A stretch of 64,000 nucleotides of DNA from an uncultured Thermoplasmatales archaeon (GTDB taxonomy: Archaea > Thermoplasmatota > E2 > DHVEG-1), in contig CAZWZY010000001.1 of assembly GCA_964638175.1 (NCBI GenBank), positions 62,257-126,256 on the forward strand, read 5' to 3'. This document shows, one piece after another, positions 17,685 to 51,311 of the stretch. The translations under genes and the position numbers were made by a program. Below the pieces are notes generated by a model. The model did not search any database. It saw only the letters and a program-made list of their open reading frames with translations, and was not told the DNA's origin. The first letter of the stretch is position 1; each line of letters begins with the position of its first letter.

Positions 17685-18137
17685 CTATAGTTGCTCTTTA
17701 ATCGTTTCAAAACAGGCGAAGGTTACTGTTTTTCCTACTCCTTGAAGTTGACGGAGTTTGTCCACCACCAATTTTCCAATATCTTCCAACGATTTTCCCC
17801 TCACTTTTAATAAGAGGTCATACTCACCAGAAATGATATGGACTTCATAAACTCCAGGAAATTTTGTTATTCGTTTAGCAAGTTGACGTTGAGACACATC
17901 AGGATTAGGCAAGAAAGAAATAAAAATAAATACTTCTGAAGGAAAACCGATTTTTTGATAATCAATGGTGACATTAAATGATTTGATGACTCCTCGCTCC
18001 ATCAGCTTCTGAATGCGATCGTGGACAGTTACTCGCGGGATGTTAATATGTTTTGCTATGGATTTGGTTGATTGTCGTGCATTTTTTTTCAATTCTGAAA
18101 GGATCAATTCGTCTTTTTTATCTATCATGTTCGTCAT
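17685..18137 (-). CDS. asnC: Lrp/AsnC-family transcriptional regulator
   Basis: N-terminal HTH (…LSELKKNARQSTKSIAKHINIPRVTVHDRIQKL…) plus a C-terminal RAM domain. Divergent from asnA. Confidence 0.85.
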   Translation of the reverse strand: MTNMIDKKDELILSELKKNARQSTKSIAKHINIPRVTVHDRIQKLMERGVIKSFNVTIDYQKIGFPSEVFIFISFLPNPDVSQRQLAKRITKFPGVYEVHIISGEYDLLLKVRGKSLEDIGKLVVDKLRQLQGVGKTVTFACFETIKEQL

Positions 18138-18234
18138 TATGTCGATTTATATATTTATATTTTATCGTTTAACTGTATTATTGTCAATATATTAGACATA
18201 GTGTTTAAATAATGTTTTTTACAAATACGATACT

Positions 18235-19140
18235 ATGAAAACACAAGATGTGGAAAAAACCAAAGCTATTATGAAAATACAAAGTGAAATACGGCATGTT
18301 CTGGCTACAGAATTACGAAAGCGAGGGTTTATTGAACTTTCACCAGTGATATTATCCCCAATTACTGACCCGTTGAATCACCCTACAACGCCGATGCACA
18401 TTACATGCTATGGTAACAAATATAATCTTACTCAGAGTATGATCTTCCACAAACAGCTTGCATTACGATCATTGGATAAAATTTTCATTTTTTCCCCAAA
18501 TGTTCGCATTGAATCATTTGAACAGAAAGACACAGGAAGACATCTCTTTGAATTTTCTCAACTTGATTTGGAAGTAAAAGGAGCAACACGGGAGGAGATG
18601 ATGTCTTTGTGTGAAGAATTGTTAGTGACCATTATAACATCGCTAAAAAAACAATGCAAAAAAGAATTGGAATGGATAGGTCGGAAACTCCAGGTGCCAA
18701 AAATTCCTTTCAGAAGAGTTACCTATTGTAATGCACGTAAGCAATATGGTGATAAATTCGAAACGATGATTTCCCAAACACATGCAGAACCAGTATGGAT
18801 CATTGATATTCCTCTAAGTAAACGGGAATTTTATGATAGAGAAGACGAAAAGAATCCAGGATACCTCAGAGATATGGATTTAATTTATCCAGAAGGATAT
18901 GGAGAGGCGCTTTCTGGCGGAGAACGTGAATATGAATATACCCGAATTAAAAAACGAATTCATCAAAAAGGACAACGATTATCATTATTTGCTCCGTATC
19001 TTCAAGTAGCAAAAAACGGTTTACCTCCATCAGCAGGATTTGGTATTGGAATTGAGCGTTTGACACGATTTATTTGTGGGTTGCCCCATATAAAAGAAGC
19101 GTGCCTTTTTCCAAAAATACCTGGAGAAAGATGTCTTTAA
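18235..19140 (+). CDS. asnA: Archaeal AsnA-type asparagine synthetase (class II aaRS catalytic core without anticodon-binding domain)
   Basis: Class II synthetase motifs (…FEFSQLDLEV… motif 2; …GFGIGIERLTRFICG… motif 3) in a 301-aa protein. Confidence 0.7.
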   Translation: MKTQDVEKTKAIMKIQSEIRHVLATELRKRGFIELSPVILSPITDPLNHPTTPMHITCYGNKYNLTQSMIFHKQLALRSLDKIFIFSPNVRIESFEQKDTGRHLFEFSQLDLEVKGATREEMMSLCEELLVTIITSLKKQCKKELEWIGRKLQVPKIPFRRVTYCNARKQYGDKFETMISQTHAEPVWIIDIPLSKREFYDREDEKNPGYLRDMDLIYPEGYGEALSGGEREYEYTRIKKRIHQKGQRLSLFAPYLQVAKNGLPPSAGFGIGIERLTRFICGLPHIKEACLFPKIPGERCL

Positions 19141-23347: not shown

Positions 23348-23469
23348 GATGAGAAAGACAAAAACAAATGGAGCATAATAAATATTTAGGTTATTTGTAT
23401 GAAAAGATGCTTTTTACCTATATATTTATTTAATTCAAATATATTTATATAATTATAGCAAATATCTTT

Positions 23470-24963
23470 TTGTGGGAGGCAGATATTATCCCAAAACAGG
23501 AACACTGGAGTTCGCGGTTCGCTTTTATTATGGCAGCGGTTGGTTCAGCAGTAGGTCTTGGTAACGTTTGGAGATTTCCGTATGTCTGCTATGAAAATGG
23601 CGGGGGTGCCTTCCTAATTCCGTATTTTGTAGCGTTATTTACCGCTGGAATTCCGTTATTGATTCTTGAATTTACGGTTGGCCATTGGGCGCGAGCCGCA
23701 CCACCTGAAGCATTCAAAAAAATTGGTAAAAAATGGGAATGGATGGGGTGGTGGACCGTGCTAATTCCCTTTGCTGTAGCAACATACTATGTCGCAGTAA
23801 TGGCATGGTGTTTCTCGTATATGATTTATTCAATAGATCTGCGGTGGGGAGCACAGGCTGGATCCTTTTTTACCAGATTTCTTGGAGACACGGGCAGTCC
23901 AATGGAGATAGGGGGAATTAGTTTACCAATTCTATTGGGGCTTGTTGTTGTGTGGTTTTCGATCTTTTTCATTCTCTATAAAGGAGTGAAGCGCATTAGT
24001 AAAATAGTTGCGTTAACTGTTCCAATCCCTACAATTTTATTAATAATTTTGACTATCCGGGGGTTAACTCTCCCTGGAGCAATGGAGGGAATAAGTTATT
24101 ATCTTACACCTAACTTTGCTAGCCTTGGAGACGTGAACGTTTGGACAGCTGCATTTGCACAGGTGTTCTTTTCGTTAAGTCTTGCCCAAGGGATCATGAT
24201 CACCTATGCAAGTTTTCTTAAGAAAAAATCAGATTTAACAAATAACGCATTTATTGTTGCTCTTGCAGATGCGGGAACTGCCTTTCTTGCGGGTTTTGCA
24301 GTGTTCAGTGTCGTTGGGTATCTAACAGTATCACAAGACATAGGTATGGCTGATTTAAATATCGTTGGTCCCGGGCTTACTTTTATTACCTATCCAACTG
24401 CCATATCACTATTACCTTTTGCCGCATCCATATTTGGGATTATCTTTTTCATAGCATTGCTTACCTTTGGCATTGATTCAGCATTTTCCATGATGGAACC
24501 TATTGCAGCAAGTGTAAATGAAAAATGGAGAATATCAAAAGCAAAAGCAACGGGCATGATGTGTATCTTTGGCTTTTTTTTAAGTTTACTATTTGCTACG
24601 GGCGGTGGCATACATTGGTTAAAAATATTGGACCATTTCATAAATAATTTTGGATTAGTAGTGATAGGTTTAGCTGAATGTATCATATTAGGATGGATGT
24701 ATCAGATTTATCGTCTGCGTGAACATGCAAACGAAACATCAGAGATACTGCTGGGGAAATGGTGGGATGTACTCATAAAGTTTGTAATACCTGGAATATT
24801 AATTGTACTTCTTAGTGTAACGATTTTCAATAATATCATTGCAAATCCCTATCCTGAGTATTCACCATGGGCGTTAGTGATTGGTGGCATGCTTCCAGTT
24901 ATTGTATTGTTTACGCTGTCGTTTTTATTGATGAAAATCAAAGGCACGGGGGTGAAAACATAG
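23470..24963 (+). CDS. Sodium-dependent transporter, NSS/SNF family
   Basis: …WSSRFAFIMAAVGSAVGLGNVWRFPY… NSS signature in a 12-TM 497-aa protein. Confidence 0.9.
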   Translation: MWEADIIPKQEHWSSRFAFIMAAVGSAVGLGNVWRFPYVCYENGGGAFLIPYFVALFTAGIPLLILEFTVGHWARAAPPEAFKKIGKKWEWMGWWTVLIPFAVATYYVAVMAWCFSYMIYSIDLRWGAQAGSFFTRFLGDTGSPMEIGGISLPILLGLVVVWFSIFFILYKGVKRISKIVALTVPIPTILLIILTIRGLTLPGAMEGISYYLTPNFASLGDVNVWTAAFAQVFFSLSLAQGIMITYASFLKKKSDLTNNAFIVALADAGTAFLAGFAVFSVVGYLTVSQDIGMADLNIVGPGLTFITYPTAISLLPFAASIFGIIFFIALLTFGIDSAFSMMEPIAASVNEKWRISKAKATGMMCIFGFFLSLLFATGGGIHWLKILDHFINNFGLVVIGLAECIILGWMYQIYRLREHANETSEILLGKWWDVLIKFVIPGILIVLLSVTIFNNIIANPYPEYSPWALVIGGMLPVIVLFTLSFLLMKIKGTGVKT

Positions 24964-32263: not shown

Positions 32264-32453
32264 AGACATTCTAAAAGTTAAAAGTGAAAGTACAAAAAAG
32301 TGGACCAATATTTTCGCAGGGTTGTCAGGTAATGCAATCCTTCTTTTATTTTTATTTTATTATTTTAATATCATAATAACCATTTATATTTATGACAAAA
32401 GAAAGCAAAATGATTTAAATGCCATAATCTATTCTCATTGCCTGTTGATAGGG

Positions 32454-46161: not shown

Positions 46162-46873
46162 GGTGGTTGTCAACTTTAGCACCTCGTTAAGTGATACATG
46201 CTTACAAAACAGTTCAACCAACTCTGCACAGTCCCAATTTTTGTATTATAAGGCCAATTCCGATAAAACCGTTTTATCCTATGTTTCAATAAGAAAAACC
46301 ACTGTTCTATCGGATTGCGCAAACCGAAAGTGATATGTTCCCATTCAACACCCAAACGTTGTAGTGCTGGTTTATACCAAGGACCACCATCAACCAATAT
46401 CTTTGGTTGATTAACACATTTTTTAAGGATATATTTTAAGAAACTATATGCTTCTATAGATGCACGACCACGTGTTACCCATATACCTAGTACTTCCCAG
46501 TTTGTTGTATCTATTGCAGCCCAGACAATATAGAGTTTTCCATTGATCTTTAGTTTGGTTTCATCAACTGCAACAACGGGTCTGTAGGTTTTACCTACTG
46601 AGAATATGGTATCAACTCTGTGATACCATTTACGAATACTTTCATGACTGATATCTTCAAAACCAGAGAGTATATTTTTACATTGTCTAAGAGAAAGCCC
46701 GTAATGATACATCAGTCTTCCAAGTGCTCTGGTCTTTCTTTGTTTTCGGTTTCGTACAAAAATATTTCTAGCTTCTAACAATTCCTCTAAGTGTGATAGC
46801 ATCCCATCCATTTGTTTTCACCAAAAAACAAGGATGGTTGCTATCATATTAAATTCTTAAGTTGACAACCACG
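46162..46873 (-). mobile_element. IS6-family-like insertion sequence (~710 bp) with 14-bp perfect terminal inverted repeats
   Basis: GTGGTTGTCAACTT at 46163-46176 and its reverse complement AAGTTGACAACCAC at 46859-46872 bracket a single DDE transposase gene. Confidence 0.7.
46176..46811 (-). CDS. IS6-family DDE transposase
   Basis: …VAVDETKLKINGKLYIVWAAID…ILVDGGPWY…NPIEQWF… fits the IS6-family D, D and E blocks. Confidence 0.8.
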   Translation of the reverse strand: MDGMLSHLEELLEARNIFVRNRKQRKTRALGRLMYHYGLSLRQCKNILSGFEDISHESIRKWYHRVDTIFSVGKTYRPVVAVDETKLKINGKLYIVWAAIDTTNWEVLGIWVTRGRASIEAYSFLKYILKKCVNQPKILVDGGPWYKPALQRLGVEWEHITFGLRNPIEQWFFLLKHRIKRFYRNWPYNTKIGTVQSWLNCFVSMYHLTRC

Positions 46874-47083
46874 TTGAATAATTCTAAAACTTTATGTATG
46901 CAAAAATCATTACCCTGTTTGTTGGGGGAATTGGCTAAAATTGATGGGCCTTCCATTACTAACTCGATTCCTCGATAAATTGGTACTTTGAGTGTGAGGG
47001 GAACCAAAAGATACCATTTACTGAGAGTAGGTGTCCGATTCCCCCTTCCACCAAAAGTTTTTTAAAAACCATGCGTAAAACGT

Positions 47084-48262
47084 TTATATGAGGCGAGATT
47101 GGCCTCGAACTTTATAATGTGCAAGTTCTTTGAATACTTCGTCTTCCTGTAAGATATTCATAATTTCCTCCGAAGAGGAGGATATTTTAATCTCTCGTGT
47201 TCGGCCGTATCTTCCCTTTGAAATAACACGTGCGGTGATAACTCCGAGCATGTCTAATTCAGAGACAAGGTCTGTAACCCTGCGCTGTGTTAATGTATCG
47301 GTTCGTGTTTTTTTGCATAGATCTTTGTATACCTCATATACCTCCCCCGTAGTGATTGCTCCTGCGATTTCTGCCTTTTTATTGTGTTTATCTTGCAACA
47401 GAATTGCAAAGAGAATGAGTTTTGATTGGGTTGGCAACGTTCTAACAACTTCAATAATACGATCAATTTCGATTTTGTTTTGGGCAAGTTTAACATACTT
47501 TTTAGTGATTTTTGGTGCTCCGTTTCGTTCTGCAAGTTCAGCAGATATCCGTAAGAGATCCAGTGCACGCCGGGCATCTCCGTGTTCTTGTGCGGCAAGC
47601 GCAGAACAAAGGGGAACGACATCATCATCGATGCTGCCTGGTTTGAGCGCAATATTAATTCGTTGTTTTAAAATATCTTGCAGTTCCCCGGCGTCATAGG
47701 GGGGGAAAATCATGTTTTCTTCGCCAAGACTGGATTTAACGCGTGGGTCAAGAAATTCGGTGAACTTAAGATCATTCGAAATACCGACGATAGATACTTT
47801 AGCGTTTGAAAGATTGCTATTTATACGAGAGAGATTGTAGAGTGCTTCGTCCCCTTTGAGCTTGTCAACCTCGTCAAGAATAATAACCGTTACACCACCA
47901 GCCCGGTCTATTGCTTCTCGTAACTTTGCATAAACCTCATCGGTTGGCCAACCAGTAAAGGGAATACGCTCAGACCACTCACTGATAAAATGATTGGCGA
48001 TGTTTTGAAGAAGGCGGTATTGAGTATCGACAACTTCACAGTTTATATAGATAAAATTTACATGTTTTCCAGTTTCTGTTCCTTTTCTCAAGAGTTCTTT
48101 GCCTACGAATTTAGTGACCGCGGTTTTTCCTGTCCCTGTTTTTCCATAAATAAAAACATTTGATGGTGTTTCGCCTCGCAACGCGGTGACAAGAACCGAG
48201 GCGAGGTCATTAATTTCCCTTCCTCTGTGCGGCAGTATTTCTGGCATGTAGGTAGGGCGCAT
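47084..48262 (-). CDS. cdc6: Orc1/Cdc6 replication initiator
   Basis: AAA+ motifs (Walker A GKTGTGKT, Walker B IILDEVD) and a C-terminal winged helix. Confidence 0.95.
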   Translation of the reverse strand: MRPTYMPEILPHRGREINDLASVLVTALRGETPSNVFIYGKTGTGKTAVTKFVGKELLRKGTETGKHVNFIYINCEVVDTQYRLLQNIANHFISEWSERIPFTGWPTDEVYAKLREAIDRAGGVTVIILDEVDKLKGDEALYNLSRINSNLSNAKVSIVGISNDLKFTEFLDPRVKSSLGEENMIFPPYDAGELQDILKQRINIALKPGSIDDDVVPLCSALAAQEHGDARRALDLLRISAELAERNGAPKITKKYVKLAQNKIEIDRIIEVVRTLPTQSKLILFAILLQDKHNKKAEIAGAITTGEVYEVYKDLCKKTRTDTLTQRRVTDLVSELDMLGVITARVISKGRYGRTREIKISSSSEEIMNILQEDEVFKELAHYKVRGQSRLI

Positions 48263-48434
48263 TGCCTCCCTATTAGTAAAAAGTCCTTCTGACTTCAGTA
48301 GTCTACCAAAAATATCACTGTTTACTGTATTTTTGTTCGTAAAATGTTCCTCCGGGGGCCTTCATAATCAACGACGCCATATTAAAAAGTTGTGTATTAA
48401 TTTTCTCCTTATTCCCTCCTGTTCAAAAAGGAAA

Positions 48435-48460
48435 GGGGGAGGCCTTTGTTTCCTATGGAA
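48435..48460 (-). promoter_or_regulatory. Origin recognition box (ORB) element 1
   Basis: Reverse complement TTCCATAGGAAACAAAGGCCTCCCCC has a TTCC-N3-GGAAAC dyad plus a G/C string, as in archaeal ORBs. Confidence 0.6.
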
Positions 48461-48608
48461 GTTGTAACATTCCATATATTCATCTTATAATTTTTCTATA
48501 TTTATAATTTTAAAAATCGAATTATTGAAATACTACTAAAAACATAAAGTTCTGGAGATACTCACGTCATACTTCTAATATCACTTTCTACCACTCCCTC
48601 CTTTTATG
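48461..48608. promoter_or_regulatory. AT-rich candidate duplex-unwinding element between the two ORBs
   Basis: ~148 bp, very AT-rich (…tataatttttctatatttataattttaaaaatcgaattattgaaatactactaaaaacataaag…). Confidence 0.5.
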
Positions 48609-48634
48609 TTCCATAGGAAACAAAGGGGTCCCCC
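48609..48634 (+). promoter_or_regulatory. Origin recognition box (ORB) element 2, inverted relative to element 1
   Basis: TTCCATAGGAAACAAAGGGGTCCCCC shares an 18-nt perfect match with ORB1 in inverted orientation. Confidence 0.6.
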
Positions 48635-48639
48635 ACCAA

Positions 48640-48689
48640 AAATAATCACATTTAAAAAATCACATAACACAGGTTATCTATGACCTGTG
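48640..48689 (-). terminator. Hairpin plus T-tract downstream of the PRC-barrel/cdc48 transcription unit
   Basis: cacaggt-N8-acctgtg inverted repeat at 48668-48689, followed on the minus strand by a T-run. Confidence 0.35.
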
Positions 48690-48711
48690 TCTCTGTGTTC
48701 CTGTTAGTTAT

Positions 48712-48948
48712 TTAACTACCGATGATGATAACATCTTTTACTGATTTTATTGAACCAAATGAAAACAGCAAGTGCCCCCGCTCATCTAAATGATAAAGCC
48801 GAGGATCAACATCATCTGACGGCTCAACAAGGATATTCTCTAATTCTCCTGTTTTACTGTCGACGGTTGAATTACGTAATATGCCTAAGTACAATCCCTC
48901 TTCGCTCATTACTGATTTCCCTCTCAGTTCATTTTCAAGGATCTTCAT
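48712..48948 (-). CDS. PRC-barrel domain protein (78 aa)
   Basis: …LRGKSVMSEEGLYLGILRNSTVDSKTGELENILVE… fits the small archaeal PRC-barrel pattern. Confidence 0.5.
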   Translation of the reverse strand: MKILENELRGKSVMSEEGLYLGILRNSTVDSKTGELENILVEPSDDVDPRLYHLDERGHLLFSFGSIKSVKDVIIIGS

Positions 48949-48975
48949 TCTTTCCCTCCTTTTTATTATATATCC

Positions 48976-51186
48976 TTATAAATATTGAATATCTTTTTCG
49001 CTTTTATCCTTTTTGGCGATCCCGCTCCCCAACCCTTTGGACATTTTTGCGTAGAAATCCATAATTTCTGGTGTGAGGGAAGGATGGACACTATTCATTG
49101 CGGTGTCAAAATCTTGTTTTGTAACCTTTTTCGTTTTTTCGTTTTTTCTAACGGCAATCATTGCTGCCTCCCGGCATAACGCTTCTATATCAGCACCGGA
49201 ATAGTTATCACAAATTTTTGCTAGTTCTTTGATGTCAACGTCTTTATCAAGAGGCATTTCTTTGGTATGAATCTTAAATATTTCATGACGTGCCTTTTTG
49301 TCGGGGGCTGGAGTCAATATCAAACGATCAAATCGTCCTGGGCGCAACAAACCCTGATCTATAATGTCAGGTCTGTTTGTTGCTCCTATGACGATGACGC
49401 CCGTCATGCTTTCTAACCCATCGATACTGGTTAGCATTTGGTTAACAACACTGTCGGTAACATGCGACCCGCTGTAGGCCCCCCTCTTGGGGGCAATGGC
49501 ATCTAGTTCATCCAAAAAGACAATTGTGGGTGCGACTTGCCGAGCTTTTTTAAACAATTCGCGAACTGCCTTTTCACTTTCGCCAACCCACTTACTCATT
49601 ACTTCTGGGCCTTTTATAGAGATGAAGTTAGCTTTTGACTCATGCGCGACTGCTTTTGCAAGCAACGTTTTTCCCGTTCCGGGCGGGCCATAGAGAAGTA
49701 TGCCTCGGGGCGCTTGGATGCCCATTCGTTTGAACACCTCAGGCTTTGTTAGAGGCCATTCTACTGCCTCTCGTAAGTTTTGTTTTACATCTTCAAGACC
49801 CCCCACCTGCTCCCAAGTAATTTTTGGCACCTCAACAAAGAACTCTCTCATAGCAGATGGTTCTATCCCCCGATGTGCGTTTTCAAAGTCTTCTTTTGTT
49901 ACTTCCATTTTTTCAAGGACGTCTACTGGAATGGGTTTTTCTAGGTCGATTTCTGGGAGATATCTTCTAAGTGCATTCATGGCAGCTTCACGAGCAAGTG
50001 CCGCAAGATCAGCACCAACAAAACCATATGTTATGTCTGCCAGTTCATCTAAATTGCAATCGTCGCTCAGAGGCATCCCTCTGGTATGGATTTGTAAAAT
50101 TTCCTTCCTTCCTTTGCGGTCGGGTACTCCAATTCTAATCTCTCTATCAAATCTTCCTGGTCTTCGCAGCGCAGGGTCAACAGCATCAGGGATGTTAGTG
50201 GCCCCGATAACTATAAGTTTGCCTCTTCCCTTCAGACCATCCATCAAGGTCAGCATTTGGGAAACGACACGACGTTCAACCTCTCCATGGACTTCACTTC
50301 GCTTTGGAGCTATTGCATCAATTTCGTCGATGAAAATAATGGAGGGTGCATTTTTCTCAGCCTCCTCAAATATTTTCCGCAGATTCTCTTCTGATTGCCC
50401 ATAAAATTTACTCATGATTTCAGGACCATTGATTGTATAGAAATTCGCACCAGATTCATTGGCGACTGCTTTTGCAATTAGCGTCTTACCTGTTCCGGGG
50501 GGGCCATGTAACAAAACTCCTTTTGGAGGATCAATTCCTAAACGATCAAAAATATTAGGGTGCTTGATAGGCAGCTGAATCATTTCCTTTACTCGTTCAA
50601 GTTCTTCTTTGAGTCCCCCGATGTCTTCATAACTTACCCGTGGCCCTTCAACTTCTGTTGTTTGTACTGCTTCTTCCTTTACTTTGATAATTGTTTCTTC
50701 TCCTATCGAAACAATGCCTGACGGAACGGTGTTAGTGATAAGAAAGGGAAGAGCACTACCAAACAGCGCAATACCTGGAATGATGACACTATCGCCTTTC
50801 GTCAGCGGGCGCTTTAGCAGTCCTTTTTTTATGAGGACATCAATACCACTGCCGAACTGAATTTGTTGTCCTTTTGAGATTAGTGGAGCAAGGGTTACTT
50901 CACGAGCACTTTTTACTTCAGCGCCTCGTATTTTCACCCGATCTCCCAGACCAATGCCTGCATTTTTTCTTGTTAAATTGTCGATTCGAATAATCTGTTT
51001 TCCTTCATCAGTAGGATGTGCTCTCCATACTACTGCAGAGGTGGTTTTTGTACCCTCAATTTCTATAACATCTCCTATAGATAAATCTAAATCAATTCTT
51101 GCTTGGTGATCAATACGAGCTCGCCCATAACCAACATCTTGCTGGAATGCTTCAGATACTTTGAGTATTATTTCCTTTTGTTTCAT
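48976..51186 (-). CDS. cdc48: Cdc48/VCP-type AAA+ ATPase
   Basis: N domain plus two AAA modules, each with GPPGTGKT Walker A and DEID/DELD Walker B. Confidence 0.95.
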
Positions 51187-51311
51187 ATGCTCCCACCAAA
51201 TAGAATAGAGATGATTTTAGCAAGAAGAAAGACTCTCATATAAATGTTTCTATATATAAATAAGATAAGATATATTTAAATAATGATATAATTATATACT
51301 CTGGAAGGGCA

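Follow-up and report, generated by a model that had tools for sequence, protein, structure and literature searches.

Origin recognition boxes (ORBs) in archaea bind Orc1-1 monomers with a defined polarity, and ORBs of opposite polarity that flank a duplex-unwinding element (DUE) bring the winged-helix domains (WHDs) and lid domains of the bound initiators face to face, with MCM loaded between them (PMC6742236, PMC12141716). The best-described arrangement of this kind is oriC1 of Sulfolobus/Saccharolobus (ORB3-DUE-ORB2), where two inverted ORBs surround an AT-rich DUE beside orc1-1, and where the DUE is largely tolerant of mutation except for an essential 11-bp motif, the ucm, which is bound by UBP; UBP is restricted to Sulfolobales and Desulfurococcales, and the authors ask about analogues in other lineages (PMC12141716). 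Chromosomal strand composition differs among the described systems, with an inverted skew polarity reported for haloarchaea and a non-inverted, bacterial-like polarity for thermophilic archaea (PMC1868953), and the experimentally mapped Haloferax origin coincides with the maximum of the cumulative skew of third codon positions and non-coding DNA (PMC12999951). Closer to the organism considered here, ORBs have been reported for the Methanomassiliicoccales, in a study that was a prediction only (Borrel et al. 2014, PMC4153887). Our literature search found no paper tying Marine Benthic Group D (MBG-D) or Thermoprofundales to a replication origin. The DNA examined in this study is a 64-kb stretch (hereafter the window) of a contig from an uncultured Thermoplasmatales archaeon (CAZWZY010000001.1, positions 62,257 to 126,256), in which a 200-bp module upstream of an orc1/cdc6 gene consists of two inverted ORBs separated by AT-rich DNA. 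We estimate a probability of roughly 85% that this locus is an oriC1-type chromosomal replication origin of this uncultured Thermoplasmatota archaeon. A preliminary description, made from the letters of the window, had already proposed an oriC-cdc6 arrangement at this place, and that proposal is supported here by the consensus ORBs, the AT-rich spacer, the Orc1-1 gene, the conservation of the module and a switch in strand skew.

The module was noticed through an 18-nt string occurring twice in inverted orientation, as CCTTTGTTTCCTATGGAA (reverse complement) at 48443-48460 and as TTCCATAGGAAACAAAGG at 48609-48626, each copy being followed by a C-rich extension (CCTCCCCC in the proximal copy, nearest cdc6, and GGTCCCCC in the distal copy). 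Reading the window letters confirmed both copies and their coordinates, and both C-rich runs, as first described. In a repeat search the pair grew to 26-nt arms (48435-48460 and 48609-48634) that match at 24 of 26 positions (92%) across a gap of 148 nt, and no other inverted repeat of the window combines a seed of 12 nt or longer with arms no more than 400 bp apart. When up to three mismatches were allowed, the 18-mer had two matches in 64 kb, where 0.13 would be expected. With a 22-nt ORB position weight matrix (PWM) built from first-pass matches, the proximal and distal copies scored 32.0 and 31.6 bits, respectively, while the next-best site in the window reached 10.0.

The proximal ORB (TTCCATAGGAAACAAAGGCCTCCCCC, 48435-48460, minus strand) and the distal ORB (TTCCATAGGAAACAAAGGGGTCCCCC, 48609-48634, plus strand) have their dyads abutting the spacer and their G-strings pointing outward, an arrangement that fits the geometry of opposite-polarity ORBs around a DUE. 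The canonical G-string, GGGG(T) directly after GGAAAC-AAA, is present in the distal copy only (AAAGGGGT), where a C-run follows it, while the proximal copy has GGCC at this position. The preliminary description had matched the C-rich run to the G/C string of the ORB layout; this run lies beyond the true G-string as an additional extension of moderate conservation. Compared with the archaeal consensus CTTCCAGTGGAAACGAAAGGGGT, the distal ORB agrees in 19 of 23 columns and the proximal ORB, with its GGCC for GGGG, in 18 of 23. Judged by these letters, the predicted pair conforms to the oriC1-type consensus of a TCCA-N-TGGAAA dyad plus a G-string, and two putative ORBs of opposite polarity flank the candidate DUE with the dyad side inward. 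A weaker copy, ttcccccttccaccaaaag, had also been proposed just past the 3' end of cdc6, at 47019-47037. The string lies instead at 47039-47057 and was rejected as a third, weaker ORB on its PWM score of -16 bits, a value reached by 1.5% of window positions; the PWM scan of related genomes found no ORB equivalent just past the 3' end of cdc6.

The gene beside the pair encodes an initiator of the kind that such boxes would be expected to bind. The open reading frame (ORF) at 47084-48262 on the minus strand matches the Pfam families Cdc6_C (7.6e-32), Cdc6_lid (7.9e-27) and AAA, which bears out its earlier identification as Orc1/Cdc6 but not its 5' boundary, since 48263-48340 is also coding (see below). 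The best PDB matches of the extended, 418-residue protein (47084-48340, minus strand) are Sulfolobus solfataricus (Sso) Orc1-1 (2QBY_A, 8e-111) and Aeropyrum pernix (Ape) ORC1 (2V1U_A, 1e-103), while Orc1-3 reaches only 1.8e-48; 2QBY_A and 2V1U_A are the two Orc1 initiators that have been crystallised on origin DNA. Key DNA contacts of Orc1 are made by R341 of the helix-turn-helix, R365 of the wing and G120 of the initiator-specific motif (ISM), and the Orc1 WHD protects the core of the mini-ORB (PMC3089459). Equivalents of R341, R365 and G120 are all kept in our alignment (at an offset of +11 in the PDB chain numbering), within conserved QRR, GRYG and FTG positions. By homology, then, the neighbouring initiator belongs to the Orc1-1 class and appears to have intact DNA-contact residues.

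The module was compared with 79 loci recovered with the Cdc6 protein (57-94% identity) from species-representative genomes. All 79 come from uncultured metagenome-assembled genomes (MAGs) assigned to Thermoplasmatota, Thermoplasmata or Methanobacteriota, including "Thermoplasmatales archaeon SM1-50", and we take the lineage of the window and its relatives to be MBG-D/Thermoprofundales-like. The closed relatives CP070836.1, CP070724.1, CP070798.1 and CP070712.1 were represented by 13-kb loci. When 769 kb of related sequence was scanned with the PWM at a threshold of at least 13 bits, 107 of the 118 hits fell within 700 bp upstream of cdc6, where they occupied two fixed positions with mutually facing dyads, the minus-oriented site at about -366 to -390 and the plus-oriented one at about -200. 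Forty-four loci contained both ORBs, and their spacers had a median length of 146 bp (interquartile range 145-148) and a GC content of 20%, compared to 35% for the loci as a whole. Cdc48, PRC-barrel, the ORB pair and cdc6 follow one another in this order in about 50 loci, and the difference between the distal GGGG and the proximal GGCC is also conserved among relatives, the proximal string being mostly GGCC. These alignments indicate that the predicted module is conserved at the orthologous locus. Distant relatives (Cdc6 identity of 67% or less) have ORB-like sites in other arrangements; therefore, the fixed module is a trait of one clade.

Some relatives depart from the common pattern. One subclade (L034, L042 and L072) retains the dyad of the proximal ORB, here situated at about -197 to -265, but has GGAAAT(G/C)A-TCCCC, with a C-string in the position of the G-string. 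In L038-L047 and L077, the distal ORB and the spacer core described below are present and no proximal ORB scored above the PWM threshold. Just outside the distal ORB of L027 (positions 2392-2430), the sequence ...CGGGTTCAAATCCCTTCCCCTGCACGCC... resembles the 3' end of a tRNA gene, which in that genome would lie directly against the origin.

The spacer between the boxes (48461-48608) is the candidate DUE, on the basis of its composition, its duplex stability and its conserved length. As the preliminary description had stated, it is AT-rich and 148 bp long, with a GC content of about 25% compared to 40.6% for the surrounding locus, and its AT-richness is strongest in the half nearest the proximal ORB and cdc6 (13-18% GC over approximately 48460-48540), where 48475-48534 ranks third in instability among the 60-mers of the window (z = 4.1). 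Four other intergenic stretches (51198-51297, 23374-23473, 18136-18235 and 32340-32439) equal or exceed it in instability by nearest-neighbour duplex energy (z = 3.8-4.6); no ORB-like sites were found in any of these four, and they are probably promoter regions.

However, the spacer is not merely AT-rich as first supposed, since it contains a conserved, oriented, single-copy core of about 90 bp (48482-48571, minus strand; ..GACGTGAGTAT..AGTATTT..CGATTTTTAAAA.TAT..). Column identity is 0.8-0.96 across 48491-48567, compared to approximately 0.86 in the ORBs and 0.48 just beyond the distal ORB. Within this core, ATTTTTAAAA (48508-48517) is more strongly conserved than any other 10-mer of the entire region. 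A hidden Markov model of the core (nhmmer) found it in 55 loci, about 20 of them outside the training set and all at the same offset and on the same strand, with no further match elsewhere in approximately 833 kb. Such conservation and orientation suggest that an additional sequence-specific factor acts in the spacer, although part of the core may be a promoter. A non-ORB motif conserved inside the DUE is a feature shared with Sulfolobus oriC1, and the core is therefore a candidate analogue of the ucm; this is a statement about an analogous feature and not about family membership. The core was not accepted as a homologue of the ucm, whose 11-bp sequence (ATTATACAAAC) it resembles, by eye, only in low-complexity, AT-rich ATTATA. 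A spacing so tightly fixed at 146 bp, in combination with an oriented core, suggests a nucleoprotein complex of defined architecture, bounded by a full ORB at one end and a variant ORB at the other.

An inverted repeat around a short spacer could in principle be a structural element, a stem in RNA or a cruciform in DNA, and not a pair of binding sites, and the arms of the window, complementary at 24 of 26 positions, would allow pairing. The relatives argue otherwise. Across 44 genomes, similarity is no higher for the two arms of one genome (0.687) than for arms taken from different genomes (0.679; permutation p = 0.12), and substitutions are mostly one-sided, with TCCA, GAAA and GG invariant in both arms. 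The arms do not co-vary and are therefore predicted to be two independently constrained protein-binding sites. The arm pair of the window is the most similar of the 44 genomes (0.885), so that its perfect 18-mer is a local peculiarity and not a family trait. The loop of such a stem would also be 148 nt long, and nothing above threshold came from scanning 48200-48800 against Rfam, even at a permissive E-value. The stem or cruciform was rejected on the lack of co-variation, and we assign it a negligible probability. Below threshold, the scan returned the C/D-box small RNA sR4 at 48721-48775 on the plus strand (15.1 bits against a gathering score of 50, E = 0.71), on the opposite strand within the PRC-barrel ORF, which is most likely a chance match.

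A short AT-rich body bounded by 26-nt terminal inverted repeats is also the shape of a miniature inverted-repeat transposable element (MITE). The 200-bp unit might likewise represent the termini of a mobile element or, if a plasmid or virus has integrated here, the origin of that replicon, especially with an IS6-family insertion sequence (IS) situated 1.6 kb away. However, the unit is single-copy in the window and lies at the same syntenic position in about 50 species, none of which has the nearby IS. Its flanking genes are housekeeping genes, no obvious target-site duplications flank it (by eye), and a search of the PLSDB plasmid database with the module gave no match. Copy number and synteny led us to reject a mobile element, for which the module lacks the hallmarks of MITE or IS terminal repeats, and we regard a mobile or integrated source as hardly credible.

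Strand composition was examined locally, over the 64-kb window and within 6 kb on either side of the module in relatives. The raw cumulative GC skew peaks at approximately 45-46 kb. When per-gene skew was regressed on gene orientation and on side of the locus, an independent side effect of -0.065 ± 0.011 was obtained, and the best orientation-corrected breakpoint fell in the 48.0-49.5 kb interval. At codon position 3 the side effect was -0.114 ± 0.018, without an orientation effect, and the skew of non-ORF DNA was +0.128 on the left compared to -0.229 on the right. A mere effect of gene orientation was ruled out as an explanation of the raw skew by this regression and the codon-position analysis. 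At near-neutral sites (third codon positions and non-coding DNA), cumulative G-C climbs steadily from 0 to 48.2 kb and drops steadily from there to 64 kb, with a maximum-likelihood change-point at 48265 (support interval of two log-likelihood units, 48041-48473; log-likelihood ratio 52.9). The same polarity was observed in 41 of 46 related loci after the origin module ± 350 bp had been excluded (sign test 4e-8, for loci that are not phylogenetically independent), and the pooled orientation-corrected coefficient in relatives was -0.037 ± 0.006.

Strand asymmetry changes sign at this locus. The preliminary description had expected an inversion near 48.5 kb with a skew minimum; the local sign change is indeed present, near 48.3 kb, but the extreme is a cumulative maximum and not the bacterial-type minimum. 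The polarity is inverted with respect to the bacterial rule, so the skew test alone does not separate an origin from a terminus; by skew the locus is a replication landmark, and the anatomy of the ORBs, Orc1-1 and DUE decides between the two. A replication terminus, or another skew landmark with which cdc6 and the ORBs are associated only incidentally, would account for the maximum, which has the polarity of a bacterial terminus, and for the genes on the right, of which the majority lie on the minus strand and would run in the same direction as a fork coming from the right. It would leave the ORBs, the Orc1-1 gene and the DUE, which are origin features with no known role at termini, as a coincidence, and mapped haloarchaeal origins have the same inverted polarity at neutral sites; we consider a terminus very unlikely. 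If the site is an origin, the leading strand would be C-rich, the opposite of the bacterial rule.

Several lines of evidence place the start of orc1 upstream of the ATG at 48262, which is internal to the gene (codon 27). The first homologous residue of the extended protein is number 19 (GLFTNREA compared to SIFINREY), which is encoded upstream of this ATG, and an alignment of 32 upstream regions shows wobble-type codon conservation for approximately 27 codons before it. Between the in-frame stop at 48362-48364 and 48262, the window contains no ATG, GTG or TTG, while a Shine-Dalgarno sequence, GGAGG (48349-48353, minus strand), is found 8 nt upstream of an ACG codon at 48338-48340, with a similar G-rich block at the same place in relatives. 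On this basis the gene was placed at 47084-48340, and orc1 probably initiates at the near-cognate ACG. Fifty-eight loci share the N-terminus of the initiator, and codons at the start position were counted by eye from their aligned codon table. ACG was found in 37 loci, AUU, AUC or AUA in 12, AUG in three (among them the closest relative, L061), GUG or UUG in three, and another codon in six, each of which has an in-frame GUG just upstream. In L010, L012, L061 and L073, in-frame stops two to three codons upstream limit where the start can lie, and ACG is the rarest threonine codon (15-18%).

Upstream of this start, a block of 0.88 column identity, TTTTTAATAT (48379-48388, minus strand), is a candidate TATA box for cdc6, to judge by the archaeal TATA consensus and its spacing. 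The candidate TATA box is separated from the proximal ORB by a second conserved block (48400-48426, minus strand; consensus ..AACAG.AG.AAATAAGGAGAAAAA..), which could be a regulatory site of cdc6. These elements bear on whether the ORB pair might be bound by Orc1 without firing, as a dormant or vestigial origin or as an autoregulatory operator of cdc6, with the chromosome replicated from elsewhere. Dormant cdc6-adjacent origins exist in haloarchaea (PMC4595724), and a locus with only two ORBs, the proximal one with GGCC for GGGG, would suit such a role. However, approximately 47 bp separate the proximal ORB from the candidate TATA box downstream of it, without any overlap, and simple promoter occlusion by Orc1 is therefore not obvious. 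In addition, a mere operator would need neither the conserved spacing nor the 90-bp core, and the switch in third-position and non-coding skew occurs within about 200 bp of the module, with the same polarity in 41 of 46 relatives. A non-firing site is thus improbable, though we rate it above the other alternatives to an active origin.

It is also important to weigh what speaks against an active origin. The module has just two ORBs, one of them without the canonical GGGG, and the spacer does not have the lowest duplex stability of the window, ranking among its three to five least stable stretches. The cumulative maximum would mark a terminus by the bacterial rule and is compatible with an origin only through the haloarchaeal precedent (PMC1868953, PMC12999951), and a rightward fork would meet the genes to the right, most of which lie on the minus strand, head-on. 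Moreover, the relatives share ancestry, so that counts of loci overstate their independence, and our view covers 64 kb of the replicon, with which further origins elsewhere would be compatible.

If the locus is an origin, it may work as follows. The neighbouring Orc1-1-type initiator would bind each inverted ORB as a monomer, with its winged-helix domain on the TTCC-N3-GGAA dyad, on the spacer side, and the ISM of its AAA+ domain contacting the G-string side; the ISM side of Orc1 corresponds to the G-string of an ORB. The two initiators, thereby facing one another from opposite ends of the 148-bp spacer, would load a pair of MCM helicases onto it. Melting would occur in the AT-rich half beside the proximal ORB, and replication would run bidirectionally. 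Orc1 binding, MCM loading and firing are each proposed here by analogy with the described systems. A more speculative possibility, which we put forward tentatively and with more doubt than conviction, combines the spacer core with the start codon. The origin spacer would hold a lineage-specific, strictly oriented element of approximately 90 bp, conserved as well as the ORBs or in part better, at which an origin factor docks (giving Thermoplasmatota a functional counterpart of ucm/UBP), and the translation of the initiator from a conserved near-cognate ACG would act as dosage control.

Beyond the distal ORB, a hairpin with an 8-bp stem (ACACAGGT/ACCTGTGT) followed by a T-run on the minus strand can be read at 48667-48690; the flank in which it lies is unconserved (0.48), and the hairpin probably terminates transcription of the PRC-barrel gene upstream instead of belonging to the origin. 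This gene, encoding 78 residues, and a gene for a Cdc48-type AAA ATPase occupy 48712-51186 on the minus strand, directly next to the origin on its upstream side. Proteins with a PRC barrel have been connected with cell division in archaea, and a copy of their gene linked to the origin may merit attention. On the other side, the IS6-family element (DDE_Tnp_IS240; 46163-46872, approximately 710 bp) has 17-nt terminal inverted repeats (46163-46179 and 46856-46872) and a DDE transposase ORF (46176-46811), and sits between cdc6 and an HGSNAT-like gene, about 200 bp from the cdc6 stop. It is missing from all 79 related loci, and is therefore a recent insertion specific to the window.

A sequence-defined origin for these widespread, uncultured sediment archaea could anchor MAG assemblies, growth rates estimated from coverage (peak-to-trough ratio) and comparative studies of archaeal initiation. 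The points likely to concern specialists are the spacer core, the fixed spacing, the GGGG/GGCC asymmetry, the inverted skew at neutral sites and the ACG start. The clean third-position switch with inverted polarity adds a case from a non-halophile to the debate on archaeal skews, and the probable ACG start of orc1, if confirmed, would be an unusual instance of near-cognate initiation in archaea. The fixed 146-bp spacing of the ORBs and the oriented core bear on the question, raised in 2025 with the ucm and UBP, of whether extra DUE factors exist outside the Sulfolobales (PMC12141716).

Compared to the described systems, the locus belongs by its anatomy to the well-known oriC1 class. Pyrococcus oriC is likewise adjacent to cdc6, and its ORB and mini-ORB repeats are bound by Cdc6/Orc1 in vivo (PMC1904270), but it has many copies of these repeats where the window has two ORBs. 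The Methanomassiliicoccales, which belong to the same phylum-level lineage, have the same ORB variant with one base fewer between GGAAAY and GGGGT, and their GTTCCAGTGGAAATGG-AGGGGT agrees with the distal ORB of the window at 17 of 22 positions. Their ORB pairs also lie near orc1/cdc6.1, but on both sides of cdc6 and with spacings of 39-256 bp, compared to a single upstream inverted pair with a spacer of approximately 146 bp in the lineage described here (PMC4153887). The haloarchaeal oriC1 (Haloferax, Haloarcula and Halobacterium) has inverted ORBs flanking a DUE beside cdc6 and a G-rich inverted repeat at each ORB, to which GGGGTCCCC may be compared, and it shares with the window the inverted skew, with a C-rich leading strand and the origin at the maximum of third-position and non-coding skew; these origins have been mapped experimentally, whereas that of the window is predicted from sequence. 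The closest parallel is nevertheless Sulfolobus oriC1, with its two inverted ORBs around an AT-rich DUE beside orc1-1, each binding an Orc1-1 monomer with defined polarity, and its extra conserved non-ORB motif within the DUE (PMC12141716). The initiator of the window is most similar to Sso Orc1-1, while the module is larger (200 bp compared to approximately 130 bp), has no third ORB, and carries in its spacer a conserved core of about 90 bp that has no convincing likeness to the 11-bp ucm of Sulfolobus.

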